DNA of 64,000 nucleotides, taken from IMG/VR virus record IMGVR_UViG_3300045988_159027. One strand, given 5' to 3'. Each line of letters starts with the position of its first letter. The first letter of the stretch is position 1. This document shows, piece by piece, positions 1 to 61,682 of this stretch. The position numbers and the translations under genes were made by a program. The notes beneath the pieces were generated by a model. That model made no database searches. It had not been told where the DNA came from and was given only the letters and a program-made list of their open reading frames with translations. This DNA is from a virus.

Positions 1-1134
1 CGTTCATCTTTAATCGTAAAAGAACTGATATATAACCGTTGGTTCGCGCAGGAAGGTAACGTTACTTATTCAGAAGCCGGCACGATCGAACGTATTGAAC
101 TTCTTGAAGACGGCACGTATGACCTGTATCTTCGTCGTCGCTGGGATAATGATATTACAGCGTTCAAGGAACAGGACGTTAGTTATGGCTCAGTGAATAA
201 TCTGAACTCTACAGGAGAGTATTATGACAGCTGGTTCCGCGTCCTTAGTGTGATGCAGGCAGAAAACAAACTGAATGTCGTGCTCTATCCAGATGAAGAG
301 GTGCCTGGGGGTAAGAACTATCCTCCAGCTGTAGGTATGGTGATTACACGTCGAGGAAATGCGGTAGATGAAGAACGGCAAGGATTCTGGTATATCTCAT
401 CGTATGAGGGCTGCATCTGTATGCTGGATGGCGTAACAAAGCCCGTGCTGGAAGAATCTAATTACAGCATCATTATCGGAAAACTAAAGCGATTGGAACT
501 GTTCGATAACCTCCCAATCAACTACCGACAGAGTTATGTGTATTGCCGTGGTATCGCTATCCAGGACTTGATGCGGATAGACTATCAGGGCGTGGTTGTT
601 GTACAGCTTAACGACCGTGGGTTCTGGTCGCTGGAGGTTGCTCAGAGCGAGAATCCTTATAAGGTTGGAAAAGATACGGTCGATACGGTATGGCATTACG
701 GATGCCGGTGGAAATGCCTTGTTACAGGAACGACGGATGAACCTCGCTATGCCAGCACAGGCTGGGCGATGATTGAAGGGAATCCGGCATTTACTATTGA
801 CATTGAAAGCGAAAACGGTTGGCAGTTTGATGGGAGTCAGCTTCAGGAAGGAGTAGTCTTTACTACCTTAACTGTAACTGGACAGCTCTACAACCGTGAC
901 GTGACAGAAAGCATACTTGATACGGACGTGTCCTGGACACGCGATACGGGCAATGTGTCTGAAGATAATGCCTGGGCTATCAAGAGAGCGGATGCTGGTA
1001 AGTCTCTTACGCTGACAGTAGACGATTTGGGGATTGAATTTGGCCGCACGAAGACTGTTTGCACGTTCAAGGCTCGCGCCTTATTACGTGACGGTCAGAC
1101 ATTCGAAGTTGCAGAGAATGAAATAACATTTTAA
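1..1134 (+). CDS. Tail/baseplate-associated virion protein, 5'-truncated by window edge
   Basis: Frame 1 is open from nt 1 to TAA 1132-1134. The ORF track starts at an internal GTG at 193. It heads a tightly packed co-directional block that ends in a fibre-like gene. Confidence 0.6.
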   Translation, partial: RSSLIVKELIYNRWFAQEGNVTYSEAGTIERIELLEDGTYDLYLRRRWDNDITAFKEQDVSYGSVNNLNSTGEYYDSWFRVLSVMQAENKLNVVLYPDEEVPGGKNYPPAVGMVITRRGNAVDEERQGFWYISSYEGCICMLDGVTKPVLEESNYSIIIGKLKRLELFDNLPINYRQSYVYCRGIAIQDLMRIDYQGVVVVQLNDRGFWSLEVAQSENPYKVGKDTVDTVWHYGCRWKCLVTGTTDEPRYASTGWAMIEGNPAFTIDIESENGWQFDGSQLQEGVVFTTLTVTGQLYNRDVTESILDTDVSWTRDTGNVSEDNAWAIKRADAGKSLTLTVDDLGIEFGRTKTVCTFKARALLRDGQTFEVAENEITF

Positions 1135-1138
1135 AGAT

Positions 1139-2299
1139 ATGATAACTACAAGAAAAAAAAGACTGGATGTGAATTATACCCCATTGCAATGCAGTGGGGA
1201 TATAGAAACCGTGGGAAGTGTACCTGACCGACAGATATACTCCGCCGACACCAAGGAATATACCCCTGACTACACGCTGACTCCACTTGTGCTGTTTCCA
1301 CGTTGCAATGCAACAGATCCGGACCAGTACACCAAGTCTGGAGTGGTAAACGCTTCTCTTACCAATATGAAGTGGTATGAGATACAGGGCACGAAGCGCA
1401 CGCTGATTGATTCAGGTAATGCGAATTACGAGATAACCAACGAGGGTGATACCAAGGGGCAGATAAAAATTAAACGTAACTCTAGCGTTACAACACCATT
1501 AGCCCTTGAGTTCTATGCTGAATACGTAGACACGCGGACAAATCAGGTATTTCCTTTCAGAATGAGTACGGTAATACCTGTATCAGATGCTACACTTCCA
1601 AGTCCAGTCATGAAACTGGACAGCCCTTCCAGCGTAATATGGAATCCGCTTCGAAATCCGTTGTCACGTACAATCAAGGCATCTGTCTTTGTAGGAGGAA
1701 GCGATATCGCATCGGATAAGCAGAAGTGCAAATTTTTCTGGTACCGAAAACTGGACACCGGATCATTGGAAGCCATTACAGATGGGAACGGAGATAATGA
1801 CTGGGAAGTAGATAGTATAGACCACAATACGCTGACCATTAATCAGGATTATATTGGAGAGGAGCAGACCTATGTCTGCAAGCTGGCCTATGCAGCAGAC
1901 GGTAATTTTCCTGGATTACCATCGGACAATGCACCTGTAGTCAGTACCACCATCCGACGACGTATTCCTGATGTGGAAGCAGACTGGAAAGGAGTTCCTT
2001 CGCAGTTTCCAGGAGGTACCACTAAGTTTACTCCGGAAGCGTTTGTGATGGACGGCATGGGCATTATCCCTAATGCGGATGAATGGCTCCGGTTTGTGTG
2101 GAACGTAAAATCTCCATATTCGCAGAGTTACAGCAGACAGGCTATCGGAGTAAAGCCGACAATCACATTTATCCCTGGAATGATGCTGGAACTGGAGGTA
2201 CAGGATAGAGGGCCACAGGCAATACTGATAGATGATACGGATGGCACCGTACTGCAGGATGCTGATGGTAATGTTTTATTTGACAGAATTAATAACTAA
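1139..2299 (+). CDS. Hypothetical tail-module protein
   Basis: 386-aa ORF starting 5 nt after the previous stop. Beta-rich, Ser/Thr/Asn-rich composition typical of tail accessory proteins. No specific motif recognised. Confidence 0.6.
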   Translation: MITTRKKRLDVNYTPLQCSGDIETVGSVPDRQIYSADTKEYTPDYTLTPLVLFPRCNATDPDQYTKSGVVNASLTNMKWYEIQGTKRTLIDSGNANYEITNEGDTKGQIKIKRNSSVTTPLALEFYAEYVDTRTNQVFPFRMSTVIPVSDATLPSPVMKLDSPSSVIWNPLRNPLSRTIKASVFVGGSDIASDKQKCKFFWYRKLDTGSLEAITDGNGDNDWEVDSIDHNTLTINQDYIGEEQTYVCKLAYAADGNFPGLPSDNAPVVSTTIRRRIPDVEADWKGVPSQFPGGTTKFTPEAFVMDGMGIIPNADEWLRFVWNVKSPYSQSYSRQAIGVKPTITFIPGMMLELEVQDRGPQAILIDDTDGTVLQDADGNVLFDRINN

Positions 2300-2310
2300 T
2301 ACATACGACT

Positions 2311-2631
2311 ATGGCATATTACGTAAAAGTGACAAAACAGGTGTCTGATAAGATGAATCTTACTGCAATACGCAATAAGACTGCGGATGGAAACGTGCTG
2401 CTGTGGCAGGCAGATTTAAATAGAATTGAAGGTGATACCATATTTGAACGCGCAGAGCGGATAGGCGGAAAGGCTATTACAGCTCAGGAAGCCAAGGCTG
2501 AAACAGACGGTACAGAAAATCCTTCCGAAGTATATACACCTGACGAATATAAGGAAGATACGCCTAGCGTCTTGCCGGAGATATCAAATGACACCGTATC
2601 TACTGAAGCAGAGGAAGGAGGTACATTATGA
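2311..2631 (+). CDS. Hypothetical protein (acidic C-terminus)
   Basis: 106-aa ORF. Its stop overlaps the next start (ATGA at 2628-2631), which suggests translational coupling. Confidence 0.55.
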   Translation: MAYYVKVTKQVSDKMNLTAIRNKTADGNVLLWQADLNRIEGDTIFERAERIGGKAITAQEAKAETDGTENPSEVYTPDEYKEDTPSVLPEISNDTVSTEAEEGGTL

Positions 2632-3683
2632 GTGAAGCAAGTGTATCACGGCAAGTAGTGTATGTGCGGAAAGGCAGCGTATATATGCCTTTCCTTCAGT
2701 CGAACATGGGAGACTTATATCAGGAGTACCAGGGTACAGCAGATAATCCGACAAATATCACGCCGGATTTCACTACGTTGACTCCGATGTTGAGTTACAT
2801 CATCACCTCTTCTTTGGCCGCTGCCGGGATTGTGGTTCCTTCGTCAGTTAAATGGTTTTTCAATGATACGGAACTTACGTTTGGAAGCAACAAACTTTCT
2901 ACGAATACTTTTGGTGGCGAAACTGGCCATTTTGAGAACGTACCGTATTCTTCCGGAACACAAAATTATTTTGCACTGAAGATAAAGAAGAACCTGGTGA
3001 AGGCATCTGCAGGTGCTGCATGTAACATTAAAGCAGAAGCGACTATTGCAGTCGGTAATACCAGCGACAAGATACAGTGCGTGTACAGTATACCTGTTAC
3101 TGTAGGTGTGGGCAACAGTAAGCGCGTTACCATCATGGCCGGTGACAACAAGTTCTTTACACTGACTGATAAGGGAGACTCCTGTATCCTCAAGGCTGTA
3201 GCGTGGATAGGTAGCGATGAACTCAATGCTGGTCAGGCATACAAGTGGTACACGCTAAAGTCAGGTTCCTGGTCTGTGTTGGACGGGCAGACAAAACAAA
3301 GTTTGACCGTTACCAATGATATGGTAGATACCACCGGACAATTCAAGGTCGAAGTGTACCAGAACGGAAACCTTATCGGGATGGATGTCCAGACGGTAGT
3401 AGATGCTTCTGACCCGTTCGACATTATTACCAACCCCAATCCAGAAAGCGAAACGATTGAGCAGGGAAGCGGTGGTACGGTAGTCTATACGCCAATACTC
3501 GTCAAACGTGGAAGTACAACCAAGTACAAGGAAATGAAGTTCTACTTTGTATTCACGGACAGTGCAGGTAATATTCTTAATCCAAGTACAGCTACTACGC
3601 CATCTGCAACAGGGACCGTAACTGAAGCTATGTGTGAACAGGCATCTGGTAATGTGGCTGTATCAATAACTACGGAGGAGTAG
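2628..3683 (+). CDS. Hypothetical tail-module protein
   Basis: 351-aa ORF coupled to both neighbours. Beta-rich composition. Confidence 0.6.
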   Translation: MSEASVSRQVVYVRKGSVYMPFLQSNMGDLYQEYQGTADNPTNITPDFTTLTPMLSYIITSSLAAAGIVVPSSVKWFFNDTELTFGSNKLSTNTFGGETGHFENVPYSSGTQNYFALKIKKNLVKASAGAACNIKAEATIAVGNTSDKIQCVYSIPVTVGVGNSKRVTIMAGDNKFFTLTDKGDSCILKAVAWIGSDELNAGQAYKWYTLKSGSWSVLDGQTKQSLTVTNDMVDTTGQFKVEVYQNGNLIGMDVQTVVDASDPFDIITNPNPESETIEQGSGGTVVYTPILVKRGSTTKYKEMKFYFVFTDSAGNILNPSTATTPSATGTVTEAMCEQASGNVAVSITTEE

Positions 3684-3685
3684 GT

Positions 3686-4687
3686 ATGACATTAGCAAGC
3701 AAAACAACTGAGGTAAAATTTCTTCAAAAAGGCCCTCAAGGGAATAAAGGGGCTAAACTTCGTATGAGAGACTGGAAGGAAGGAGAGGAGTTCCTTGCTG
3801 GTGCAGAAGGAGAAGCATATTACGATGTTGTTAATTATTTTGACAAACTTTATTTGACTATTGTGTCTCATACTGCAAAATCAGGTGTTAATGACCCTAT
3901 TACTTCAGTGTCACAGCAAAAAGGTTTTTGGGAATTAGCACAGGACTGGACATTTATTGCGACTAAACTTTTGCTTGCAGAGAAAATATCGGCCGAAGAA
4001 ATTGATGCAGACGGACTTGTTGCGAAGAATGTGAATATAACTGGTAAGATATATGCAGAAGAAGGTGAACTTGGGAAAATGACAATAAAGGCTGATTCAG
4101 CAGATGATGGTTTGTTTTTAAAGGATGATACTTATGGTTCTGAAATGTCTCTAAAATCTAGGATGTTTATGAGCATCCCATATAATGTGTTTGCTGTTAA
4201 TCCTGGAAGAGACCAGTCAAATGTATTGCTTTACGTAAAAAAACGTAGAGGTAATTCTTTAGACAGGGCTTTGTATGTAGATGGCGTTGCTGAAGTTTAT
4301 GGCAGATTGGGCGTTGGTAGAGGTAAGGATACAGGATTTAATCAGTTCTATCCGGCGCTTGTCGCTGAGGGTATTAGCTGTTATGGTCAATTTTGCCTTC
4401 CGATTAAAACAGTGACTTCAACTTCTTCTTTAGACTCGACTTCCAGTTATGTGGTTTTGAATTTTTCTTCTTCCGGTGGATATATACGTCTACCTTCCAC
4501 CAACCTGACAGATGGACAGACTATTATTATAAGGAATATAGGTTCTAATAATGTCACGGTGTATGGTAATATGAAAAATGAAAGCAATAGTAGTATTACA
4601 CAATATACATTCAGAACTGGAGGACGATTACACGTTCATACTTATTATCAGAATGGTAATTACTGGCTTGTAAACAATCTTAATTAA
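3686..4687 (+). CDS. Tail fibre-like protein
   Basis: N-terminal GPQGNKG collagen-like triplets and a fibre-style segment (LLAEKISAEEIDADGLVAKNVNITG). Starts 2 nt after the previous stop. Visibly more AT-rich than the upstream genes. Confidence 0.55.
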   Translation: MTLASKTTEVKFLQKGPQGNKGAKLRMRDWKEGEEFLAGAEGEAYYDVVNYFDKLYLTIVSHTAKSGVNDPITSVSQQKGFWELAQDWTFIATKLLLAEKISAEEIDADGLVAKNVNITGKIYAEEGELGKMTIKADSADDGLFLKDDTYGSEMSLKSRMFMSIPYNVFAVNPGRDQSNVLLYVKKRRGNSLDRALYVDGVAEVYGRLGVGRGKDTGFNQFYPALVAEGISCYGQFCLPIKTVTSTSSLDSTSSYVVLNFSSSGGYIRLPSTNLTDGQTIIIRNIGSNNVTVYGNMKNESNSSITQYTFRTGGRLHVHTYYQNGNYWLVNNLN

Positions 4688-4697
4688 AACGATAATC

Positions 4698-4964
4698 ATG
4701 AAACAAGTAGATTTTGGTAAAGTAAAAGTTCAGCTGACTTTTGAAGGTAATCCGGTTGAATTTAACATGCGTAAAGTAATAGGTAATATGATTCGTCAGA
4801 ACACTAATGATATAGGGTTAGATGAGTTTGCCAGAAAGGTATATTTTTCAGATGGCCCGGTTGAAATTCCGGATGAATATATAAAGCCTATTTTGGGCAT
4901 AGTAAAATTGAGTATGACAGTTCCAGCTCAACAAGCATTAAATGAATTATTAACAAATGAATAA
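4698..4964 (+). CDS. Hypothetical small protein (fibre module)
   Basis: 88-aa ORF lying between the fibre-like gene and the switchable gene. Confidence 0.5.
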   Translation: MKQVDFGKVKVQLTFEGNPVEFNMRKVIGNMIRQNTNDIGLDEFARKVYFSDGPVEIPDEYIKPILGIVKLSMTVPAQQALNELLTNE

Positions 4965-4975
4965 AATTTAAAATT

Positions 4976-5467
4976 ATGATACAGAAAAAATCTTTAAAAG
5001 AAGCTATACAAAATCCGGAGATAATATCAGTTGTGGGAGGACTACTGCCAACCGCGACTCAAAGTTCTTCAGGAATTATGTCTGCAGCTATGGCTAAAAG
5101 AATTTTCCAAGTGTATTATCAGCAAAGCAATTCATCTACCAAAATTTACAAACTGACTCCCAGTACCGGATTTGACGTATCTAAATTATATATCTTTACA
5201 GATGTAGGTTCTTTGTCTGAGTATGTAATTCATAAGAACTTTGTTCATGAAATCATTTCTCCTATATCTGAGGTGTATTTTGTCATTGATTTTTATCAAA
5301 ATTCAGATGGAGATATATTTGTAAGAGTTCAATCAAAATCATTCGGAATAACAGTTTCATTCCACGTCGTTATTCCGGGATTCAATGGAATCTCAACATC
5401 ATTTTCTTTCACTGAAGTAAGTATTGATATTTCAGGATTAAACAGAATAGAACCTAAAAAAGTTTGA
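4976..5467 (+). CDS. Switchable protein, currently expressed variant (constant 23-aa N-terminus plus C-terminal domain A)
   Basis: ATG start. Codons 18-23 (SVVGGL) are encoded by the left 17-bp inverted repeat. See the invertible segment feature. Confidence 0.65.
   Translation: MIQKKSLKEAIQNPEIISVVGGLLPTATQSSSGIMSAAMAKRIFQVYYQQSNSSTKIYKLTPSTGFDVSKLYIFTDVGSLSEYVIHKNFVHEIISPISEVYFVIDFYQNSDGDIFVRVQSKSFGITVSFHVVIPGFNGISTSFSFTEVSIDISGLNRIEPKKV
5027..5043. repeat. Left inverted repeat TCAGTTGTGGGAGGACT
   Basis: Exact reverse complement is present at 5957-5973. Confidence 0.9.
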
Positions 5468-5547
5468 CATGTTTCTATCCCATTGACAGGCCCGCGGGAG
5501 GAGTAAGTTTACTTACCGCTTGATGGAATGATACTATATTTTTATAC

Positions 5548-5967
5548 TTAAAAGCTCAATGGTACTGCATCATCTGGAACAGTATCAACATCTTCAATTT
5601 CAGAAGGAACCCCTTTTATTAGGGGGCTAATGTCAATTCTTAGATAAGCATTAGTGGTAACATAGACACTGATATTACTATTGGATTCTATTTTATACAA
5701 TAAGGATACAGCACCAGGCTTTTCACCACATAATTGTGACGCGTATACTCTTGTTATGTTCCATTTTACCGCAAGTAGATTAACTGTGGACATTTTCCCA
5801 TCAACCCCTATAAAATGTAATATACAAGAAAAAACGTGGTTTACATCTGTAGTTTTTATCGTAATTTTTGCCTTTCCATTGTCCTTTTTATTGTATGTGT
5901 AATCAGATCTTTGCCTGTGCATTAGACCTTCCTTTTCAGGATTTGCTATCCCAATCAGTCCTCCCAC
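5548..5967 (-). CDS. Silent alternative C-terminal cassette (domain B) of the switchable protein
   Basis: Convergent with 4976..5467. It has no ATG; the only possible start is a GTG inside the right repeat. The frame through the repeat again reads SVVGGL, and a stop lies 12 codons upstream. Confidence 0.55.
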   Translation of the reverse strand: MGGLIGIANPEKEGLMHRQRSDYTYNKKDNGKAKITIKTTDVNHVFSCILHFIGVDGKMSTVNLLAVKWNITRVYASQLCGEKPGAVSLLYKIESNSNISVYVTTNAYLRIDISPLIKGVPSEIEDVDTVPDDAVPLSF

Positions 5968-5973
5968 AACTGA
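5957..5973. repeat. Right inverted repeat AGTCCTCCCACAACTGA
   Basis: Exact reverse complement of 5027-5043. Lies 50 nt from the 3' end of the recombinase gene. Confidence 0.9.
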
Positions 5974-6023
5974 ACAAAAGGAAAGTGAAGATAAAAATAA
6001 TCTTCACTTTTCTTATTTTCTAA

Positions 6024-7163
6024 TTAAATAGACAGTTGTCGTATCAGAGTGCTTTCACTTGTCTGTGCATATACCATTGTCATTTTTAAGCTTCTATGAC
6101 CTATTACCTTTTGTATTGTAGTAACAGGAACATCTTTGTTTACAAGTCTTGACGCACAAGTATGTCGAGCCACATGAGCTGAAACATTCTTATCTATACC
6201 TGCATGTTTTATAGCAGTTTTTAATCTGGCATTGAACAATTCCTTTTTTATACCGAAAAAATCATCAAGCCTGTAAAGATATTTATTTATTATCTGCTCT
6301 GCTCTTCCGTCGAATATAGAAGAAATAGGTATCCTAACGCCTGTATTTGTCTTTATGGAAGTATAGGTAAGCCACATTTTCCCATTTTCTATGGTGAAAT
6401 TTTTCGGGGAGAATGAAGCAAAGTCTGATATTCTTGCTCCGGTGTAAGCCATAAAAAGGAATCTGTCAAGTGTAACAATGAATCGTGATGGAGTGTCGGT
6501 ACGTGCTATGTAATTTTCAATTTTACGAATATCATCGTCAGTTAGCGACTTCATTTTATATTTCAGACGGTCTGAAAGTTTTTCATGATAAAAGTCGAAA
6601 CTACCGGAAGGGACCTTGTTGCCAAACAATTTCCTGGCAATATTATAATAACACCTAAGCACATGTATCTGCATACCTATTGTAGTTTGATTCAGACCGG
6701 CTTCACGCATATAGCGTATAAATCCCTTTGCATAATCTTCCGTAATATCGGAAACTGAACATTCTTTACAGAATTTCCTGAGATGCTTTAGCACACGTCG
6801 GTGTATTCCTTTTGTTCCTTCGCGAATATCGCGGTGTTCTATCTGATATTCCATCATCGAATAGAAGTCATTAGATGACTCACGCCCATCCCATATTTCC
6901 TTCAGCTTTGAAAGTGTAAACTCTCCGTCGTAATCAAGCTCATACTCTTCAAGCTGATAAAGCGTTTTACGGATAAACAGATTAAGTTTCCTTGCATGTG
7001 GGTTACGGATAATAAGCCCGTTTTCACCATCCCATTCATCGTGAAACACATGTACGTTTGTATCAATTAAGATACTTTTACCGAACTGTTCGCAGCGCAC
7101 ATATACGCTGAACATACCTGAATCAAATTCTTTGACGCAGATAGAATACTTGATTTTGTTCAT
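6024..7163 (-). CDS. Tyrosine site-specific recombinase (integrase and/or invertase)
   Basis: Catalytic signature seen: ARISD (Arg), HVARHTCASRL (H-x-x-R-H), IGHRSLKMTMVYA (His...Tyr). The N-terminal arm-type and SAM-like domain layout is typical of Bacteroidetes integrases. Confidence 0.9.
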   Translation of the reverse strand: MNKIKYSICVKEFDSGMFSVYVRCEQFGKSILIDTNVHVFHDEWDGENGLIIRNPHARKLNLFIRKTLYQLEEYELDYDGEFTLSKLKEIWDGRESSNDFYSMMEYQIEHRDIREGTKGIHRRVLKHLRKFCKECSVSDITEDYAKGFIRYMREAGLNQTTIGMQIHVLRCYYNIARKLFGNKVPSGSFDFYHEKLSDRLKYKMKSLTDDDIRKIENYIARTDTPSRFIVTLDRFLFMAYTGARISDFASFSPKNFTIENGKMWLTYTSIKTNTGVRIPISSIFDGRAEQIINKYLYRLDDFFGIKKELFNARLKTAIKHAGIDKNVSAHVARHTCASRLVNKDVPVTTIQKVIGHRSLKMTMVYAQTSESTLIRQLSI

Positions 7164-7423
7164 AGAAGGTTTGTTTTATTTGGCTTGAAGGGCGGAGCAA
7201 AGTGTTGCACATCCGTCCTTCTTTTTATTGTTTTAAAGTGTAAATAAGCATTCAATTGTCAAAAAAACATACCCGTTTTATTCGGATATAAATATTTTTT
7301 GTAATTTAGCAGCGTGATAGGGAAAACAGGGATTCCCTTCTTCGATGAGAGTTTTATCAACACAGAAAGGAGACAAGCGATTGCCTCCTTTTTTGTTTTT
7401 GTCTGCCGAGAAACCGTCGTTTT

Positions 7424-12491: not shown

Positions 12492-13040
12492 ATGGATAGA
12501 GAACAAATGATCTCCCGTTACGAGGAGCTGTATGATAAGATGAAGGACAGCAAGGACGTGAAGAATATGAAAATATTCGGCGAAGCTGCTACCTATTATT
12601 TCAAGGAAATCGCAAAGATGCATCCGGAAATGGCTATGAGCTGGCTGAGCCACCTCGAAGCAATGTGCTGGGATAATTTTTTGTCGGAAACAGAGGCCGT
12701 GAATATCGGTAAGACCATGGTCAACGAAGATGGGTTGAAAGGATTCCACTGGGGGCATGACACTTTCGTGTCTGCCGTGAAACAACTCGGAGGAGTTCCC
12801 GAAGAAAAACCTTCGTACAACTCGTATGCACTTTGTGTCACAGCCAACATGATTTACAGCGACATGGCATACAGCATCGCTGAAGACATGGGATACAAGA
12901 CACCTGCCGAAGTGCCGAACGAAAAGATGGCCCTTTCATGCTACAAGAAAGCTGTGTCCTACCTGAAAGACAAGGACAAGAACTTTCAGGTGCGCCGTTA
13001 CTTCAAGAAGCGCATGTACGGAGAGCAGGCAGCCATGTAA
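12492..13040 (+). CDS. Hypothetical protein
   Basis: 182-aa helical-looking ORF between two terminators. Confidence 0.55.
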   Translation: MDREQMISRYEELYDKMKDSKDVKNMKIFGEAATYYFKEIAKMHPEMAMSWLSHLEAMCWDNFLSETEAVNIGKTMVNEDGLKGFHWGHDTFVSAVKQLGGVPEEKPSYNSYALCVTANMIYSDMAYSIAEDMGYKTPAEVPNEKMALSCYKKAVSYLKDKDKNFQVRRYFKKRMYGEQAAM

Positions 13041-13198
13041 CAGCCGCATAGAAGAAAAGCTGGACCTCCTTATACGTATGGTAGCTCAACTTGACGGGAT
13101 AAGAGGATTTGGCTCTAATGTGCTGGCAAATGTGGTGGGCGATATAATTATGAGAAAAAGATGATGTAGTTTGTCTTTCCACCCTATATGAATGAAAA

Positions 13199-13242
13199 TG
13201 CAGCCGGGTTTTGTCGTTTCTTCCCCGGCTGCATTGTTTTTT
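13199..13242. terminator. Bidirectional terminator
   Basis: TGCAGCCGGG / CCCGGCTGCA 10-bp stem with T-rich flanks, between convergent genes. Confidence 0.7.
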
Positions 13243-13260
13243 AATTATCAGTAAATTATA

Positions 13261-14046
13261 TCATTGTCTGACAAAATTTACATTTCCAAAGTTAGTGTAT
13301 CCTCCGTCAAAATAAATAAGCCATTCCCCAGAAGGGCTTATTTCGTGTCTCATATTGACCATGTTTTCGGGAGGGCAAAGTGCGCTGTGAGGAGGTATTT
13401 CACCATTGTCGTAAAACCAGTAGAAATATATTTCATCTCTTGAAATGTTTGTATAATAATAACCTTGTGCTGAATATGTGTTTCTAACTGTTCCTGAATC
13501 CTTATAACTCCATTCCACACTCCATTCTGCTGTCCCTATTTCGTTGTCAAATGTAAGGGTATGAACAGCTCTGTATTTCTGTCCACCATATTGATAATCT
13601 ATGCCGGCTTTAAACGTATGACCTATCATTTCTTCCTGTAGAAGATTGCTTACTTCTTTGTTTTCCATAACTTTATTTTCACCTTCCTGGTTGGTAAAAT
13701 AAAGCTTGTTTCCTGAGAAATTTATGTTATATATAAATGAAGGTGCGTCATCTGGCATTGAGCCGGTTTCATCATCGCATACTATTATTACATTCCCATC
13801 TTCATCTATTTTCCATTTTGCAACAGACATCATTTCAGGCCTATCATATTTCCTGTAACTGTTTCTTTCCATCCATTCAAAATAGCCGTCTGTGCGAAAT
13901 CTGATTGCTTCATCATCATCGGATATAAAATATCCATTCGTTAGTTTCTCAGATAGCGTGTTCTGTGTCGTTTCTTCTGTGCCTTCGTCCTTTGAGCAAC
14001 TGAAAAATAGAACGCAAGCAATAAGCATTGTTAAAATTTTTTTCAT
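13261..14046 (-). CDS. Lipoprotein (moron candidate)
   Basis: MKKILTMLIACVLFFSC signal with lipobox Cys, followed by SKDEG (acidic residues after Cys+1). AT-rich gene on the opposite strand. Confidence 0.75.
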   Translation of the reverse strand: MKKILTMLIACVLFFSCSKDEGTEETTQNTLSEKLTNGYFISDDDEAIRFRTDGYFEWMERNSYRKYDRPEMMSVAKWKIDEDGNVIIVCDDETGSMPDDAPSFIYNINFSGNKLYFTNQEGENKVMENKEVSNLLQEEMIGHTFKAGIDYQYGGQKYRAVHTLTFDNEIGTAEWSVEWSYKDSGTVRNTYSAQGYYYTNISRDEIYFYWFYDNGEIPPHSALCPPENMVNMRHEISPSGEWLIYFDGGYTNFGNVNFVRQ

Positions 14047-14160
14047 ACACTAATTAATTTTTATTTCAAGCAAATGTAACTATAAGCATAAAATAAAAAT
14101 ATGATTATGAGATGAAAATTTTAAAAGTGCTGATTTTCGGAGGAAAAATGAAAAAACAAA

Positions 14161-14194
14161 ACAATTTTAAACGTGAGTCGCATTAAAATTGTTA
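14161..14194. promoter_or_regulatory. Inverted pair of TTAAAATTGT boxes
   Basis: ACAATTTTAA at 14161-14170 and ATTAAAATTGTTA at 14182-14194. On the minus strand this reads TTAAAATTGTTTTG, upstream of the lipoprotein gene. Confidence 0.4.
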
Positions 14195-14212
14195 GCGTAT
14201 GGGCAAAAAAAA

Positions 14213-14491
14213 TTAGCTCTTCTTTCTCAGATTGACTTCCACATCGAGCAAGCCACCGCAATAAGGGCAGACGCTTGCACCTGATTCTTTACGCACTTCT
14301 TCCGGGCTGGCAAAGAGTTGCCACATGGGAACCTCAAGGGCTTCTGCTATTTTTTCAAGCGTTTCCATTTTAGGAGACATCTTTCCATTTACGATGTTGT
14401 ATAATGCAGGAAGGCTTATTCCTACTTTATCTATTATGGATTTTACTTTTATTCCTTTCAAATCACATATTTCTTTTATTCTGTAATTCAT
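14213..14491 (-). CDS. XRE-family HTH regulator (cI/Cro-like) with C-terminal CxxC
   Basis: The segments IKSIIDKVGISLPALYNIVNGK and LEKIAEALEVPMWQLF are a classic HTH_3 motif. Divergent from the early genes. Confidence 0.85.
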   Translation of the reverse strand: MNYRIKEICDLKGIKVKSIIDKVGISLPALYNIVNGKMSPKMETLEKIAEALEVPMWQLFASPEEVRKESGASVCPYCGGLLDVEVNLRKKS

Positions 14492-14540
14492 ATATAACGT
14501 ATAGGTTTATTTAATTTGAAGCAAAATTAGGCATTGATTT

Positions 14541-14615
14541 TAATATATAAACTAATACTTCACTTAAATGATGTTAATATATATCACTTATTTATTGTTT
14601 AAGTTGTAATATATA
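14541..14615. promoter_or_regulatory. Three TAATATATA boxes in the divergent switch region
   Basis: Copies at 14541-14549, 14575-14583 and 14607-14615 (spacing 34 and 32 bp). A TATATTTG -7 box lies at 14626-14633. Confidence 0.35.
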
Positions 14616-14661
14616 TACTATTACTATATATTTGCATCAAACAGATAAACAAATAGTATAT

Positions 14662-14925
14662 ATGACACAGAAATTCAACAAATCCGAAATCATGAAAGCT
14701 GCTCACAGAATTCGCAACCATTCATGGAACTGCACCATGAGCCAGGCATTAAAAGAAGCATGGCGCAGAGCAAAGAAAGAAGCCGCACAGCGTGAGGAAT
14801 CAGAAAAGCGAATGGCTTCCATGAAAAGCAGCAAGGCCGACCAGCGCAATGCACGCATGTATCAGCACGTGGTTTTCGGTAAGAATGACTGGGTCATGGA
14901 TTACGGACGCAAATACAGATATTAA
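14662..14925 (+). CDS. Hypothetical small basic protein
   Basis: I prefer the ATG at 14662, because the TTG start in the ORF track overlaps the -7 box. Confidence 0.5.
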   Translation: MTQKFNKSEIMKAAHRIRNHSWNCTMSQALKEAWRRAKKEAAQREESEKRMASMKSSKADQRNARMYQHVVFGKNDWVMDYGRKYRY

Positions 14926-14952
14926 TAACCTTATAAATATAGAATATGAATT

Positions 14953-15177
14953 ATGAAGAAAAAACCAGCATCGGAACTTCGGATAATGGCTTCGGAGTTT
15001 ATTCACCGCAAACTGAGCGGTGCGCCATTCGTATCAGTGAATTATTCGGAAGATGGAGCGACAGCATTTTGCGTGTGGCCGGATGGTGTAAGAGAGTATT
15101 TGTACGTGGACTACGCCGACCTAATGCCACAAAGCCAGCACGAGCGTGCGATGGAGTACATACGCGGAGTAAGGTAA
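14953..15177 (+). CDS. Hypothetical small protein
   Basis: 74 aa with plausible composition. Preferred over the overlapping N-terminal half of 14946..15410. Confidence 0.5.
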   Translation: MKKKPASELRIMASEFIHRKLSGAPFVSVNYSEDGATAFCVWPDGVREYLYVDYADLMPQSQHERAMEYIRGVR

Positions 15178-15415: not shown

Positions 15416-16453
15416 ATGGAAGAAGTGTTGAATAGTGAACTGGTGTTTGTTGGAGAAAACGAGCAGGTTCTTACAAACAGCAAAATTGTATCAGAAGTGT
15501 TTGGAAAACGCAATAGTGACGTATTGCGTGACATAAGAAATTTGGATTGCAGCAAGGAGTTTCATGAGCGAAATTTTGCGCTATGCCTGGAAACCAAACA
15601 GTTAGGAGTTGGTAGTACACAGACAAAGTATTACACCATGACCAAGGACGGATTCACTTTCCTTGTCATGGGATATACGGGAGCCAAGGCAGCCCGGTTT
15701 AAGGAAGCCTACATTTCGGCCTTCAACCGAATGGAGAAAAAGCTCCGTGAGCAGGTCACGAAACCGCAGCAGGACGATATAGACGTGAGCAAGTACGGAA
15801 GGAAAGAACTTGCCCTGCTTCTGATAGAAAGCGACGAGGAACTGGGAGATGCGCTTGAACAGCTTGAACGAAAGAAAGAAGAGGTAGCCGTGCTAAAGTA
15901 CCGTCTGGAGCAGATGGAAAAATGCCGTGAAGAAAGCCTTCATGTATCAATTCCCTCAGCTTTTCCGAAGGGAAAAGAGCAAAGCAGCCTTTTGAAGCGG
16001 GTTGAGCGTCTGGAAAAGATTGTGTCCGCATTTGCAGGCGATGTGGAAGGATTGAAGGAGTGGAAGAAGGAGGATGTATCGGACATGTACTACAAGCCTG
16101 AATTTTACAAAAAGTATCCCGAGTGTATATACATAAGCAGCCCCGTGCTTACGCCTTCGGTCATGTACCGTGCCATGGATATGGAGGACCTGCGGATACG
16201 TCTGTGGAAAGAGCTTAGCATAGAAATATCCCCTTTTTCGCTATTGCAGTTCCTTTATGAGCACAAGTTCCTTCAGGCAAAAGAGCAAGAGCGAATGAAG
16301 CCCACGGAGTTTTCACGTATGCACGGATACGCATACGCCATGGAACCTGACAAGGACGAGGAAAGCGGTATCCTTACTTACCGTCCGCTTTTCACCGAGG
16401 CGGGATTTCTCCGGATAATGGAAACCATAAAGATGGAAGGAGTGCAGCCATGA
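15416..16453 (+). CDS. Rha-family phage regulatory protein
   Basis: The N-terminal segment VLTNSKIVSEVFGKRNSDVLRDIRNL matches the Phage_pRha signature. Central coiled coil. Confidence 0.7.
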   Translation: MEEVLNSELVFVGENEQVLTNSKIVSEVFGKRNSDVLRDIRNLDCSKEFHERNFALCLETKQLGVGSTQTKYYTMTKDGFTFLVMGYTGAKAARFKEAYISAFNRMEKKLREQVTKPQQDDIDVSKYGRKELALLLIESDEELGDALEQLERKKEEVAVLKYRLEQMEKCREESLHVSIPSAFPKGKEQSSLLKRVERLEKIVSAFAGDVEGLKEWKKEDVSDMYYKPEFYKKYPECIYISSPVLTPSVMYRAMDMEDLRIRLWKELSIEISPFSLLQFLYEHKFLQAKEQERMKPTEFSRMHGYAYAMEPDKDEESGILTYRPLFTEAGFLRIMETIKMEGVQP

Positions 16454-18424: not shown

Positions 18425-21400
18425 ATGGCATACAACAGGAACCAACAAGCACGAATAGACGTATATATAGGCGGAACTACTCAGGCAAAAAAGCAGCTTC
18501 AGGAAATGAAGAACGAAGCTGCTCAACTGTCGAAGGAGATAGAGTCCATGAAGCAGCAGCAGCTTTTTGAACTTGATCCGAAAGCTTATGATGAACTTGG
18601 GAAAAAAATACAGGAAAGTGAGAAACGTTTCAAGTCCATGAATAAGGTCATAAGGGATACTGAAAGACAGATATACAACATATCAAAGGAGTTAAGCGAC
18701 CTTTCAGGTGAAACGGAACGTAACTTAAAGTCAAGCCGTAATTATTATCAGCAGCAGCTTGCACGAACAGACCCTAAAGACCTTGAAAAAATGCAATATA
18801 ACGCTTCCATGCTGAACAAAATCATGGAAGAGCTTGAGCGTCGTAAGAAGAATATAGAAGGTTTCGCTACAATATTCGGGAATATACGCGATGCATCCGA
18901 CAAGGCACTTTCAACGCTTCGCCAGCGTTTACAGGAAGTGATGGGAACTACCAAGGAAGGAACTGAGGAAATGGCCAGATTCTCAGAACAGCTTCGCACG
19001 GTGGAAATGGAGCAATCGAGGAGGGTGACTCAGCAGGCAAAAACCACTTTGGGACAAGTTCAGACTGGGACGTTTGACGGGACTATCGGGCAGACGAAAG
19101 AGGCTATCAAATTGCTTGAAGAATACAAGCAGAAGCTTAAAATCAGCGACACAAAGGGAATAAAGGAGGTCGAAGATGCTATTGCCACGCTTAATGGGAA
19201 AATAAAGACTACTTCTGATGAAGTTATAAGTCTGGATGAAGCTCTCGACAAGGCCGGTAAAGTTGGAATGGGTACTTTTGACGGGACGTACGAAGACCTT
19301 CAGCAGTTGAAAAAAACATTGCAGGACTATCAAAGCCAGTTAAAAGTGGGCGACACGAAGCAACTGGATAAAATAAGGAATGCTTTTAAGGATATTGAAT
19401 CTGCAGAGCAGGCGGTCTCCAATAAGCTTGTAAATGTAGACGATGTAATGAAACGCTTGCGTACGGCTCCGCTTGAAGAATTGCAACAGGCTGCCGCACA
19501 ATTGCAGAAAGAACTAACGGAGTCAACCAGACGTACAGAGGAGTATGTAAAGACATCAGCTAAGCTTCGTCAGGTAAGTGCACAGATAGACGATGTGAAA
19601 AAAAGCTGGCAGGAGCACGACAACCAGATTGTAGCTACAGCGAAAAGACTTACATCGTATGTGCTGGTTTACGCCGGATTCAATGAAATCGTCGGGCGTA
19701 TAAAGCAAATGGCTCAGGCGAATTTTGAACTTAGCGACAGCATGGCTGACATCCAGAAAACAACCGGGCTTTCCAGTGAAGAGATTGCGAATCTTACAAA
19801 AAACATAGATAAGATAGACACACGAACGGCGCAGGAACAGCTTTATAGTCTTGCGGCTTCGGCTGGACAGGCAGGTCTGAAAACGGAGGAAGATGTGCTT
19901 GGATTTGTGCGTGCGGCAGATCAGCTTACTATTGCATTAAATGAACTTGGTAATGAAGGTGTAAACACCCTTCTAAAAATCAGCAATCTTACAGGAGAAG
20001 GTAAACTTCTGGGAACAGAAAAAGCTTTATTGGCTATTGGTAGTTCTATCAATGAATTGTCTGCTGCAAGTTCTGCCACAGCCGGACCTATTACCGATAT
20101 TATTAACCGTATTGGCTCTGTGGCAAGCGTATCCAAGATTACTATGGCGGAAATGGCAGCTCTCGGTGCGGTTATGGATGAAAATGCTGAAAGCGCGGAA
20201 GTGGCAGGTACGGCTCTTACCTCATTTATATCTGCATTACAGACTAATACAAGGTCAATCGCTATGGCTGTAGGTATAGATGATAAAGTCCTTGAAGACA
20301 TGATAAGCGCAGGTAAAACCATGGATGCTATGCTGGTTGTTCTGGGTAAGTTGAAGGGGATGAGTGAAGAGGATGGATTGAAGGCATTAGCTCCTATAAT
20401 GAAAGAATTTGGGAGCGAGGGAGAGCGTATGAACCGAGTTATCACTACGCTTTCACAGAACACTGATGTACTTCGTTCTCGTGTAGAATTATCACGCCAG
20501 GCGTACGCTGAAGCCACTAGTGTGACCAATGAAGCAAATATTAAACAGGAAAGTGCCATTGGTATAGTAAACCGACTTGGCAACGAAATAAAGGAAACAT
20601 TCGTTAATTCAAATGCCGTAGAAAGACTAAAAGAGTTTCTATCCACGCTACTTGATTTTGTAAAATGGTTAAAAAGCGGATCTGACGGAGCAGAAGTATT
20701 TAAAACTTCAGTTACTTCACTTGTTCTTGGGCTTGCATCTTTTACGGTTGCAGCAAAAGCGGCAGGTGCGGCAATATTCACAGCAAGTACATATACAACG
20801 TTGTGGAAGGAAGGATTTTCTGCATTGAATACAGCCATGAAAAAAAATGTAATTGGACTTGTGGTTGCCGGAATAACTACGCTTGGTTATGCTGTATATG
20901 ATTTGTTGACAAAAGTTAGCGATATTACAAAAGCCACCAATGATTACAACAAGGAACTTGAGCGTGAAAGGCTTCGTGTAGATGCGCTTTTTGAAGGGGC
21001 AAAGAAAGAGAATCAGGAAAAGGATGTAAAACTGAAACTTATCAACCAGATAAATGACCGATATGGAGATTATATAGGATTCCTCCTTACGGAAGCTGAC
21101 AGTAACGAAAAACTTTCTGCTGCACAGGAACTTGTAAACGCTAAAATACGTGAAAGGCTATCGTTGCTTTTAAAGGAAAAACTTCAGGAACAAGCGGCTG
21201 AAAAGACCGCATCAGGAGTAAGTACAGCACTTGGTAATATAAAACAAGGACTTCAAGAAACACAGGGTATTTCAGATGTACGGTCAGATGAAGCGTTGCG
21301 CGTAGTGCAGCAGATAGTAAACCGTGATATTAAAAAGCCGGTAGATGAAATTGTAAAGCAGGTTTACGCTACCTTGCGTGAAAAGTTCTCCACGGAAGGG

Positions 21401-26336: not shown

Positions 26337-26350
26337 GGAAAAAATAAAAC

Positions 26351-27472
26351 ATGGCAATACAGGTATTACAGCAGCCGCCACAGATAGCATTTGCAGGCGA
26401 CCCCATAGTGGTTAAGGCAAAAACCACGCTGAGCGGAAAAACGTTTCTCCGCATAAAGATTACGGTCAATGCCACCGCATTTGCCGGATCTGAAGAGTTT
26501 CCTTATTCAGAAAGTTACTCATTCGAGGTAGGATCTGACGGGATAGCCGTTTTCAATATTGGAGAAACCATAAAAACTACGCTGTCACGAAAGATGACGT
26601 TTGATGTGAACGGCACGCAGACCCTTTCACAGATGATATACGCTGCACGATACACCATTACCTACAAGGAGTCATATATTGACGGTATGGTAGAGATAGA
26701 AGAAGGTGAAACCACTTCCGAGCAGTACAATGCCATACCCGGAAGGCTCACGGAGTTTGAACGCCTTACCACATCCAATGTAGATACCACAGAGATTTTA
26801 GGTGAGGGACGCATCTTGAGCCGTAAACCGGAGGGAGATATTGTCCCATTGGGATGGATACTGTGTATTCCTGCAGTAAGTACCCGATCGGACACCATTA
26901 CCTACAGCGTGGTGCAGGGAGAAGAATCGAAAGAATATTCCGAATACACACGTGGTGCGCTGGTCCCGGATTCATTGCAAATAATCACATCATCGTTGAA
27001 GGAAGGTGAGCTTACAGTGAACACCGGATTTGAAACCGGGAAGAAGCGCTATGCGGTAAAGACAAACCCGCTCATGCGCCACTTCATATTCCTGAACGGG
27101 TTCGGTTTGATGGAAAGTGTAGTCGCTTTTACGCGCGATTCGCTGGAGTATGACATACAGAGTGAGCTTTACACGCTTCCTGCTGACATTTCCTACCGTG
27201 CTACCACGCGCACTGCCAGCTATGCACAGACGCCTTCAGGAACTTTTTCCATGAGCAGCGGATTTGTAAACAGAGAGTGGGCCGAATGGTGGCTCACGGA
27301 ATTTGTGGTGACGCGAAAGGCATGGATGTACGATAACGGCACATACATACCCGTCGCCATCATACCAGAAGAGACGAACAAACTTTATGACCGCGCTAAA
27401 CCAGGTCTTATTTCCGTGAATTTCAGTGTGCGGTATGGATTCTCAGGAAGTACTATGAACTCATTCGTCTAA
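26351..27472 (+). CDS. Tail-associated protein
   Basis: 373 aa. Last gene of the tape measure operon. Confidence 0.55.
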   Translation: MAIQVLQQPPQIAFAGDPIVVKAKTTLSGKTFLRIKITVNATAFAGSEEFPYSESYSFEVGSDGIAVFNIGETIKTTLSRKMTFDVNGTQTLSQMIYAARYTITYKESYIDGMVEIEEGETTSEQYNAIPGRLTEFERLTTSNVDTTEILGEGRILSRKPEGDIVPLGWILCIPAVSTRSDTITYSVVQGEESKEYSEYTRGALVPDSLQIITSSLKEGELTVNTGFETGKKRYAVKTNPLMRHFIFLNGFGLMESVVAFTRDSLEYDIQSELYTLPADISYRATTRTASYAQTPSGTFSMSSGFVNREWAEWWLTEFVVTRKAWMYDNGTYIPVAIIPEETNKLYDRAKPGLISVNFSVRYGFSGSTMNSFV

Positions 27473-58552: not shown

Positions 58553-59422
58553 ATGGATACAAGAAAAATACCAGTGGAGCCTTTATCTCCACAACTCACG
58601 TATGAGCCTTCACCATCAGTACCTCAGACCGTACACTATCAGAGCCGTATAACCGGGATAAAACACTGTCTGGACGAAAAACAATATGAAGAGTTTGAAA
58701 ACACGGTGTTCAGAAGAGAATCTGTCAGACTGATTCCCGAACCCGAAAACCAGTTTGACGGAAACGCCATTGCAGCCTATACAGCCGACGGAGTAAAATG
58801 CGGATACATCGCACGTGAAGAAACAGCGATGATAAAAAGCCTTATGGAAGAGCCTGATTTTAAAGCCAGTTTGTTTTACATGGATTTCATGGCCGGCAGC
58901 GCAAAGATAGAAATAACCGTCAGCACATCTGTTTCTCTTTATCTCATGAAGCTGTTCTGCCAATACACACCGTTTGAATTATGCAAGGCAAATTATCTTT
59001 ATATCCGCTGGGGTGGGATACCCGACAGCACCGAAGAAGGAATATTCTCTTCCGAGGAACTGAGCATGGATTTTGACAGATTATCGCAGCTTGAACTCAT
59101 GTATCAGGACCGTTTGGCGCAGGAGTGGGAATATAGGATGGGAAAGGCCACGGTGGAGAATCCCGATAGACCCAAAGCACGCATGAGCGTTCCTCTCGAC
59201 CTTTCCGTTTACGGGACAAGCTGGAAAGACATAGACCTTCACGACACCTCACTCATTGATCTCATTGAAACGGAAAACAAGATGCTGGCCCTCTACATCC
59301 GGATGCGAAGAAAAGGGATAAACCTCTCTCCGGAAGAATGTAACGAACAGATGGCAGACGGCACGCTGAGCGAAACGGTGCTGAAACGGATGCACTTTGA
59401 GTATGATAATAACAGGCTATAA
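58553..59422 (+). CDS. HIRAN-domain protein
   Basis: The segment VRLIPEPENQFDGNAIAAYTADGVKCGYIAREETAMIKSLM fits the HIRAN pattern (EPxNxxDxNAI...GY(I/V)xRExA). Confidence 0.55.
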   Translation: MDTRKIPVEPLSPQLTYEPSPSVPQTVHYQSRITGIKHCLDEKQYEEFENTVFRRESVRLIPEPENQFDGNAIAAYTADGVKCGYIAREETAMIKSLMEEPDFKASLFYMDFMAGSAKIEITVSTSVSLYLMKLFCQYTPFELCKANYLYIRWGGIPDSTEEGIFSSEELSMDFDRLSQLELMYQDRLAQEWEYRMGKATVENPDRPKARMSVPLDLSVYGTSWKDIDLHDTSLIDLIETENKMLALYIRMRRKGINLSPEECNEQMADGTLSETVLKRMHFEYDNNRL

Positions 59423-59438
59423 ACAAGAAAAAAAAGAA

Positions 59439-60347: not shown

Positions 60348-60386
60348 TATGATAAAAGTTTAGAATGAAAAAGTACGATTTTAATG

Positions 60387-60415
60387 TGATAATCAAATTA
60401 AAATTGTTACATTTG
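60387..60415 (+). promoter_or_regulatory. Class-I operator/promoter TGATAATCAAATTAAAATTGTTACATTTG
   Basis: 18 nt (TCAAATTAAAATTGTTAC) are identical to 28800-28817. Ends in a perfect TAnnTTTG box (60408-60415). Confidence 0.5.
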
Positions 60416-60490
60416 CCAAGAAATTAAAAGGGAGGAATGATTATTTCTCCCTTTCCGCTTGCTTTTGTGATATTTGTTGTATATTTGCAA

Positions 60491-60666: not shown

Positions 60667-60680
60667 ATACATATATTGTT

Positions 60681-61682
60681 ATGCTCAAAAATTACACAAA
60701 TCAAATCTTCCAGTACAACGGAAGTCCTATTTCCTTTCAGAAAGGAAGTAGTGTAATGGTTAATGCAACTGAAATGGCAAAGCCTTTTGGGAAACGTCCG
60801 GCTAAATGGTTAGAACTTCCTTCAACAAAAGAGTTTTTAGCTACATTAGTCACTATCCGAAAATCGGACAGTGAATTTGTAAAAACAATTAATGGAGGTA
60901 CTACCGAAAAAGGGAAAGGCACCTGGATGCACGAAGATGTAGCCCTTGAATTTGCACGCTGGCTAAGTCCTGCATTTGCCATCTGGTGCAACGACCGTAT
61001 TAAAGAACTGCTGATGAACGGAACCGTCAGCACCCGAACCACACAAACTGACTACACATGCAATGAAAACACTCATGGAAGTGTAGAAAATCTTTCCGGA
61101 CTCCTCACTGAAATAGAAGAAGAGCTTTCCGAATCCATTTCCATGCTTCAGCACAAGAAAGACCGTATTTCCTACCTTAAATATCGTCTTGAACGTGAAG
61201 AAACCTTGTCGGAAGGAACTGCACAAAGCCAGTTTGAGCAGCGCATATCAAGGCTTGAACAGATGATACAGAATTATCTTTCAGGCGACAACGGTTCCGT
61301 CACGCCTGTAAACAAGAATCCCGAAACTACCACACATCCGTTCTACGCAAAAAAAGACATCCCATGCTACACCGTCAGTGAAATACGCGCCCGCTTCCGC
61401 GATGCCATGCTTGTGCGTCAGATGGCCCGCACCATGAGCCGTGAAAACGGGATAGTGGTACGCACGGCACGCCTTTTCGACTTCCTTCGCCGTGAAGGAT
61501 GGCTGCTTTCCACACCCGAATGTTACAACGCTCCTTCCGAAGAAAGCACAAAGCGCGGACTGATACTGGCCGCACACTCCAGCGCCACCGGTTCCGGAGT
61601 GAAATACTACACACCTTACATCACACGCGAGGGATACGAGTTCTTTTCACGCATCATCATGCAGAAAGGAGGCTACCTATGA
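60681..61682 (+). CDS. KilA-N / KilAC antirepressor-like protein
   Basis: The N-terminal segments IFQYNGSPISFQ, VNATEMAKPFGKRPAKWL, GTWMHEDVALEFARWLSPAFAIW are the KilA-N signature. The C-terminus is a KilAC domain paralogous to 16450..16896. Confidence 0.8.
   Translation: MLKNYTNQIFQYNGSPISFQKGSSVMVNATEMAKPFGKRPAKWLELPSTKEFLATLVTIRKSDSEFVKTINGGTTEKGKGTWMHEDVALEFARWLSPAFAIWCNDRIKELLMNGTVSTRTTQTDYTCNENTHGSVENLSGLLTEIEEELSESISMLQHKKDRISYLKYRLEREETLSEGTAQSQFEQRISRLEQMIQNYLSGDNGSVTPVNKNPETTTHPFYAKKDIPCYTVSEIRARFRDAMLVRQMARTMSRENGIVVRTARLFDFLRREGWLLSTPECYNAPSEESTKRGLILAAHSSATGSGVKYYTPYITREGYEFFSRIIMQKGGYL

Follow-up and report, generated by a model that had tools for sequence, protein, structure and literature searches.

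A probable two-cassette inversion switch beside a tyrosine recombinase in the tail module of a candidate gut Bacteroidales phage

Introduction

By inverting segments of their DNA, Bacteroidales diversify their capsules and surface proteins, which affects their susceptibility to phages, and an inversion switch carried by a phage and acting on one of its tail proteins would be a counter-move that matches this variation of the host surface. Here we describe a candidate switch of this type in the IMG/VR virus record IMGVR_UViG_3300045988_159027, analyzed as one stretch of 64,000 nucleotides (nt) that is called the window throughout. In this locus, one short constant head can be joined to either of two alternative C-terminal cassettes, which are bounded by an exact inverted repeat and lie next to a tyrosine recombinase gene. 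Systems of this kind have already been described, and the window carries a minimal two-cassette member with a distinct recombinase clade. The first-pass annotation of this DNA knew of no well-described example of a receptor-binding or host-range switch driven by a tyrosine recombinase in a Bacteroidales phage, a statement that is out of date in view of the shufflons of BV01-like phages (PMC13596623) and of Bifidobacterium prophages (PMC6109161).

BV01-like phages of Phocaeicola vulgatus possess an active three-cassette shufflon on a gene termed ‘tail protein 2’, which is flanked by a recombinase and uses the directional core TGGGAGAACT (preprint, Res Sq, Sept 2026, PMC13596623). Six isoforms are encoded within 1.7 kb and all configurations were seen in reads; a Pro14Ser change was reported in tail protein 2, and the target is annotated as a carbohydrate-binding tail fibre under diversifying selection (PMC13596623). 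As in the window, a tail gene has its distal end exchanged by means of cassettes with a recombinase at their flank, and the host family is Bacteroidaceae. The BV01-like core agrees with the corresponding TGGGAGGACT of the window at 9 of 10 positions and with the related loci L002, L048, L015, and L052 at all 10, and the Pro14Ser change fits Pro14 in the head of the window's protein. In contrast to the three cassettes of the BV01-like shufflon, the window has two cassettes and a single inversion, its 17-bp exact repeat is longer than the BV01-like core, and its recombinase of 379 amino acids (aa) is convergent with the switch gene and about 30% identical to the clade found beside multi-cassette loci. 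Homology of the two systems is nevertheless likely, with the BV01 system known here from its published description.

The Rin shufflon of Bifidobacterium prophages was the first phage shufflon of a receptor-binding protein (RBP) that is driven by a tyrosine invertase (Mavrich et al. 2018, PMC6109161). It resembles the window in its phage-encoded tyrosine recombinase, in the constant RBP N-terminus followed by small dissimilar C-terminal cassettes, and in the short asymmetric crossover site at each cassette start; its inversions were seen by comparison of prophage and virion genomes. However, Rin belongs to phages of another phylum, has an unrelated 11-bp site (TTCCCTAACCC) and five cassettes instead of two, and its enzyme is XerD-like without the arm-binding domain that is present in the window enzyme. 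Moreover, the constant part of the Rin target is a real N-terminal domain, whereas that of the window comprises 23 aa.

The Gin/Cin/Min/Pin systems (Mu, P1, p15B, e14) likewise invert DNA between short inverted repeats in a tail-fibre gene with a constant 5′ part and alternative 3′ parts, and this inversion changes host range. They employ serine invertases that depend on Fis and an enhancer and act on 26-bp sites, in contrast to the tyrosine recombinase of the window, and their invertible segment also carries a chaperone gene (U/U′), whereas no chaperone open reading frame (ORF) lies inside the window's segment. Membership in the Gin/Cin/Min serine-invertase group is excluded, as the only recombinase at the locus is of the tyrosine type. 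The R64/IncI shufflon (Rci, sfx, pilV) likewise has a tyrosine recombinase and a short conserved site where each alternative C-terminal cassette begins, and the relatives of the window include multi-cassette versions as well. Its target is a conjugative pilus adhesin on a plasmid, and its site sequence is unrelated.

Results and Discussion

Organization of the switch locus

We consider it very likely that the locus is a site-specific inversion switch, i.e., a shufflon reduced to two cassettes within the tail module of a gut phage that presumably infects Bacteroidales. Its features are as follows.

4976..5043, + strand: constant head, start codon plus 23 codons (MIQKKSLKEAIQNPEIISVVGGL); the final 17 nt are the left repeat
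5027..5043, + strand: left recombination site (IRL), TCAGTTGTGGGAGGACT, with the family core GTGGGAGGACT; inversion breakpoint in L008, L063, and L066
5044..5467, + strand: cassette A, the one expressed at present; codes for residues 24-163 of ORF A, a variable C-terminal domain modelled as a beta-sandwich
5468..5547, 80 nt: spacer between the tail-to-tail cassettes, within the invertible segment
5548..5956, − strand: cassette B, currently silent; alternative variable domain without its own start codon
5957..5973, − strand: right recombination site (IRR), exact reverse complement of IRL
5978..6014, between the recombinase stop and IRR: hairpin with a T-run on both strands, terminator-like, outside the inverting segment
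6024..7163, − strand: tyrosine recombinase, the proposed invertase; 379 aa, convergent with the switch gene, 3′ end 50 nt from IRR

A repeat search of the window showed that 5027-5043 is the exact reverse complement of 5957-5973, with 913 nt separating the arms, and revealed no direct repeats of note. With up to three mismatches allowed, the 17-nt repeat has two matches in the window, while dinucleotide-preserving shuffles expect 0.13; this expectation, together with the presence of sites at cassette starts in related phages, rules out a chance origin. Both arms encode S-V-V-G-G-L in frame with their own ORF (QNPEIISVVGGLLPTATQSS on the + strand and SSLSFCSVVGGLIGIANPEK on the − strand), and the repeat and its reading frame thus correspond to what the first-pass annotation had read. 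ORF A (4976..5467, + strand) encodes 163 aa. ORF B (5548..5967, − strand) lacks an upstream ATG, as had been noted earlier, and an in-frame stop lies 10 codons 5′ of SVVGGL (..EK, stop, RLFLSSLSFCSVVGGL) instead of the 12 codons given before. The region is embedded in an AT-rich block, with a G+C content of 0.35-0.37 over 4001-7000 compared to 0.44-0.47 upstream and 0.43-0.55 downstream; this block had been recognized from the letters, but it begins near 4000 and not at 3686.

The hairpin at 5978-6014 forms 15 pairs on the + strand and 11 on the − strand (−18.8 kcal/mol, z = −2.67). A terminator between cassettes A and B was also considered and rejected, as 5460-5560 folds no better than shuffles (z = 0.72). 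The IMG/VR contig L038 ends, at 6146-6210, in a fold-back copy of the terminator hairpin region and not in the recombination site, which is probably an assembly artefact at the palindrome.

Both orientations of the segment occur in public assemblies

Among contigs whose flanks are 100% identical to the window, the inner 913-bp segment was found in the orientation of the window in L054, L055/L064, and L056. L063/L068 and L066/L072 carry it inverted, and there the sequences diverge from the window precisely at the repeat. A further contig, L008 (run SRR23754936), matches the window collinearly to either side of the segment (98-99% identity), while window positions 5027-5973 align in reverse with 99.8% identity over 947 nt, and the breakpoints coincide exactly with the repeat. 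Over all inverted contigs (L008, L063/L068, and L066/L072) the reversed segment is 99.8-99.9% identical. The inversion of 5044-5956 that had been predicted from the sequence was therefore seen in nature, and an exact repeat-bounded inversion accounts for the observed pattern.

The products of both states are represented in the protein database. P0041, encoded on the contig of L008, consists of the 23-residue head of the window fused to domain B, exactly the fusion that the prediction called for, and the same fusion is present in L063 and L066. Conversely, P0001 corresponds to domain A without the head, and cassette A occupies the silent slot in L008, L009, and L063-L074. In a look-up of independent public metagenome assemblies, A was expressed as the 163-aa product in 11 contigs and silent in 12, the latter being counted via a 129-aa internal ORF, which is what gene callers annotate for a silent cassette A. 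Across different loci, six cassettes were found in both expressed and silent slots.

Contigs also tend to break at the sites. Six of the seven IMG/VR contigs found by their head end 12-107 nt past the left site, in 15 of the 28 stretches found by the site at most about 110 nt separate it from an end, and L041 and L043 terminate on its last base. Such frequent breaks suggest that both orientations were present in the sequenced samples. As these loci break short-read assemblies, catalogues of gut viromes probably truncate such phages at this point.

Proposed mechanism of the switch

In the mechanism that we propose, the fixed promoter-proximal part of the gene (start codon plus 23 codons) would end in the 17-bp site encoding S-V-V-G-G-L, and the identical inverted site would head a second, promoterless and start-less cassette 913 bp away. 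The 379-aa recombinase would pair both sites and exchange strands within the shared 17 bp, so that the 947-bp segment flips with the reading frame kept, giving either head plus domain A (163 aa) or head plus domain B (158 aa). Only the cassette joined to the head would be translated, and the hairpin with T-runs at 5978-6014 probably ends transcription of the recombinase ahead of the silent cassette. Because there are only two sites, both inverted, a two-state switch would be the sole outcome. Most likely, the conserved short N-terminus anchors the protein to the virion while the variable domain contacts the cell surface; if flipping takes place within one population, as the data suggest, a lysate would then hold two adsorption types. 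This minimal version with two sites and one enzyme would be convenient for studying the mechanism of tyrosine invertases and for constructing orientation-locked phages for receptor mapping.

Several points weigh against this model. The recombinase carries an arm-type DNA-binding domain typical of integrases and is the sole tyrosine recombinase in the 64-kb window, so that a dual or different role is possible. Switching within a population is suggested by the comparison of assemblies and by contig breaks. Neither variable domain has a Pfam, PHROG, or NCBIfam match, as is also the case for the 333-aa and 88-aa genes upstream, and a fold search of the PDB gave no match better than E = 0.1 for the domains, whose suggested role in receptor binding draws on analogy.

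The variable domains are predicted to share a beta-sandwich fold

AlphaFold (AF2) models built with the family alignment predict the same organization for A and B, namely an N-terminal helix, an extended linker, and a beta-sandwich of 9-10 strands (predicted local distance difference test, pLDDT, 78 for A with its 10-strand sandwich and 81 for B). Among the weak PDB matches, Foldseek assigns the highest probability to T4 gp9 and to an N-terminal domain of tailspike type. In BFVD, which holds predicted viral structures, the top match is the same for A and B, a small gut-siphovirus protein that is uncharacterised, and domain B has 50 matches at E ≤ 1e-3, mostly to tail-fibre, tail, or baseplate proteins. 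The structural comparison of the two domains that had been suggested together with the original annotation thus yielded one common beta-sandwich, with fold matches mostly to phage tail-fibre proteins. These fold matches, the position of the gene in the tail module, and the extreme diversity of the family fit a small tail-tip protein whose N-terminal peptide would dock to the virion.

An unlikely but not negligible alternative is that the inversion is real and the variable protein serves as a decoration, as a tail-assembly or adaptor protein, or as a modifier of the host surface that is expressed from the prophage. The protein falls into no sequence family, its constant part comprises just 23 aa, and the weak PDB matches include anchor domains (T4 gp9 and tailspike N-terminal domains) instead of receptor-binding tips, all of which would suit such a role. 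On the other hand, the gene stands at the end of the tail module with phrog_3267 tail proteins upstream, the BFVD matches are mostly tail fibres, and no signal peptide was found in the variable protein. In addition, the 373 clusters at 50% identity represent a diversity that is typical of host-recognition proteins, and the BV01 preprint annotates its target as a carbohydrate-binding tail fibre under diversifying selection. We therefore favor a tail-tip protein whose inversion would switch host range. Of the earlier proposal of a receptor-binding or host-range switch in a Bacteroidales phage, the inversion has been borne out, whereas receptor binding and a change of host range are suggested by analogy and the host assignment by relatives. 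For phages of this type, a host-range prediction made from one assembled orientation would be incomplete.

A tyrosine recombinase accompanies paired sites

The presence of a tyrosine recombinase beside the switch, as called in the first pass, was substantiated by its domains and active site. The protein encoded at 6024..7163 matches Phage_integrase (PF00589, E = 1.5e-22), Phage_int_SAM_5 (PF13102), and Arm-DNA-bind_5 (PF17293, 28 bits), and possesses the complete catalytic set of all six tyrosine-family residues (R244, K271, H330, R333, H356, and Y365). Among solved structures, the Tn1549 integrase and Xer proteins are nearest to it; in NCBIfam, it has sub-threshold matches only, to XerA/XerD/XerC, integron-integrase, and FimB/E-type entries, none of which is named Rci. 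The genes neighbouring the switch contain no resolvase-domain match in Pfam or PHROG.

The index of the public assembly collection lists the identical 379-aa protein in 178 blocks, and in 10 of 10 loci shown it adjoins a pair of cassettes flanked by inverted sites. Two related loci carry a single domain gene instead: L002, whose upstream backbone resembles that of the window with 97.7% identity over 5 kb, and L023, whose downstream lysis genes are like those of the window. Both lack a second site as well as a recombinase beside the switch gene. Based on this association, we infer that the recombinase catalyzes the inversion.

The enzyme could instead be the phage integrase, acting on an att site elsewhere, with the inversion caused by a host invertase in trans or by rare homologous recombination across 17 bp, an explanation that we regard as quite improbable. 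Its arm-DNA-binding domain and the lack of a second tyrosine recombinase in the window would be expected of an integrase; in the isolated phage BS-TP2 (see below) the shufflon-adjacent gene is the only tyrosine recombinase match and is annotated as integrase, and PMC6109161 cites Bacteroides invertases that are able to act in trans. Yet every locus examined that has a second site also has the recombinase, whereas L002 and L023, whose backbones are near-identical but hold a single cassette, lack it. Holin and amidase genes follow the switch region, and the recombinase gene lies between tail and lysis genes and not at a prophage end, and two recombinase clades that are about 30% identical both adjoin cassettes. 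Homologous recombination across 17 bp would be too inefficient, yet both states are about equally common.

Other phages moreover appear to have a separate integrase. In L052, a prophage in a Bacteroides metagenome-assembled genome (MAG), a second tyrosine recombinase adjoins the shufflon recombinase, and among the three PF00589 genes of BV01 it is the att-adjacent one that has been proven to encode the integrase (PMC8354205). The window itself is probably only part of a larger phage genome, since related contigs reach about 95-111 kb. For these reasons, a dedicated invertase is more likely than a second role of the recombinase as integrase.

It is barely credible that the two orientations are old fixed alleles of different phage lineages without present-day flipping. 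Each assembly examined has a single orientation and no listed sample has both, but in six samples or more the flanks are 100% and the segment 99.8-100% identical between orientations, so that hardly any time for divergence remains. Assembly breaks at the sites are also far too frequent for fixed alleles, every silent cassette in the loci examined is an intact ORF, and all configurations occur in the reads of the BV01-like system.

A wider family of heads, cassettes, and sites

Repeat-flanked cassettes in both orientations were found in related phages, where the first-pass annotation had proposed to look for them, and they belong to a much larger family. Of 71 database clusters matching ORF A, 69 carry the nearly invariant head MIQKKSLK(D/E)AIQNPEIISVVG(G/E)L. 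Behind the head come a loose linker of the form (LP/IG)xx(T/S)xxxxGL(M) and C-termini of unrelated sequence, with total lengths of 109-174 aa. A profile search retrieved 373 representative proteins, one per 50%-identity cluster, among them cassettes without a head, proteins whose heads are longer (about 97 aa at most), and tandem cassettes that are read through. As most of these matches align across the entire variable domain, the variable domains form one divergent family. In P0072, P0106, and P0137, in-frame cassettes of the same orientation follow each other without an intervening stop (...PISWRDKRYSTELGELIG...), giving read-through ORFs of 335-468 aa with tandem variable domains.

All 70 distinct sites collected from related loci with the 11-bp core GTGGGAG(G/A/T)ACT are read in the V-G-G/E/V-L frame and lie at a head or at a cassette start. 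The core goes with both recombinase clades, and in the clade of the window it is part of an extended site, (T)(C/T)AGTT plus core. Across related phages the number of cassettes ranges from two to six: L015, L032, and L053 have three silent cassettes each, and L019 and L052 have five each, in both orientations. The multi-cassette loci (L015, L019, L032, L033, L052, and L053) are always flanked by the second recombinase clade, whose members comprise 388-397 aa, are transcribed in the direction of the head gene, and are 63-73% identical to each other and 29-32% to the window enzyme. On the reverse complement of L052, two divergent silent cassettes (3826-3870) share back-to-back sites, CTCCCAC-N8-GTGGGAG, which form a perfect 7-bp dyad around an 8-bp spacer; this dyad may be a clue to the binding mode of the recombinase.

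Cassettes, heads, and backbones occur in different combinations. In L009, the A/B pair of the window (95% identical) lies behind a different 44-aa head in a different backbone, with a recombinase that has no DNA similarity to that of the window. One cassette is found behind two different heads and in a silent slot (L010, L022, and L042), while in L058, L061, and L067 backbone and recombinase are 100% identical to the window and the cassette pairs are unrelated. At least four different N-terminal heads exist, from 23 to about 97 aa. Based on these three sets of loci, we tentatively suggest, as a possibility with somewhat less than even support, that the 11-bp V-G-G/E-L site is a docking point common to many gut Bacteroidales phages, integron-like for tail-protein domains, at which cassettes, drawn from no fewer than several hundred types, would move between the expressed and the silent slots of one phage and also be traded between unrelated backbones, with at least four heads and two recombinase clades using one core. 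The switch is not peculiar to BV01-like phages, as core site and domain family are found in many gut phage backbones, and both the wide distribution of the family and the way in which cassettes appear to pass from one backbone to another via the 11-bp site exceed the systems described in the literature that we found.

A variant of the system is present in an isolated temperate phage of Bacteroides salyersiae, BS-TP2 (PQ571275.1; L050/L051), with a junction that codes for L-E-E-L / E-G-L in place of V-G-G-L. In GenBank, the phage sequence was linearised at a point within the shufflon, with the head gene gp85 (MEKMELSEALKANASVLEEL..) at the 3′ end and at least three silent cassettes (ELEGLL.., LLEELIG..) together with the ‘integrase’ gp3 at the 5′ end, and the paper describing BS-TP2 makes no mention of a shufflon. 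No match was obtained in a DNA search of INPHARED phages with 3600-7300. In GTDB genomes, a 20-mer DNA scan returned one MAG prophage, L052, and a scan with the head peptide gave 93 chance stretches and no relative. With the clade-2 recombinase as query, near-identical proteins from metagenomes were retrieved by the thousands, with no P. vulgatus ATCC 8482 entry among the best 120 matches. The relatives with a named host are Bacteroides phage BS-TP2, an uncultured Bacteroides MAG, and a Phocaeicola plebeius MAG, and it is by these relatives that the host of the window phage is predicted to belong to the Bacteroidales.

Upstream genes and other features of the window

Two further genes precede the head gene.

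3686..4687, + strand: upstream 333-aa gene in the tail module, no family match
4698..4964, + strand: conserved 88-aa gene, directly upstream of the head gene and also found upstream of it in most related loci, no family match

The label ‘fibre-like’, which had been given to 3686..4687, found no confirmation in Pfam, PHROG, or NCBIfam. The two genes further upstream (1139..2299 and 2628..3683) match phrog_3267 (tail protein), and the 88-aa gene possibly encodes an adaptor. The 88-aa and 333-aa genes are replaced together in L071, L073, and L074. In L071 (3493-4311) and L074 (1494-2312) a 272-aa protein with a weak match to CBM_5_12 (carbohydrate-binding) takes their place; as these phages are otherwise similar, the tail gene beside the switch appears to be modular as well.

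Tail genes are found at 193-4687, while a gene for a 1924-aa tape-measure-like protein (18425-24199, + strand; phrog_25337, phrog_28) and two large ORFs, with 24207-27472, lie downstream of the lysis genes; this gene order is unusual. Two more AT-rich islands are present at 13001-15000 and 59001-61000 (G+C 0.32-0.39). The first holds a 261-aa ORF on the minus strand (13261..14046) without family match, and the second adjoins a HIRAN-domain protein (58553..59422) and a KilA-N/ANT antirepressor (60681..61682). A 429-aa protein with a Cro/C1-type helix-turn-helix (27461-28750, − strand; PF13443, phrog_8) is possibly a repressor, and a Rha-family regulator is encoded at 15416..16453.

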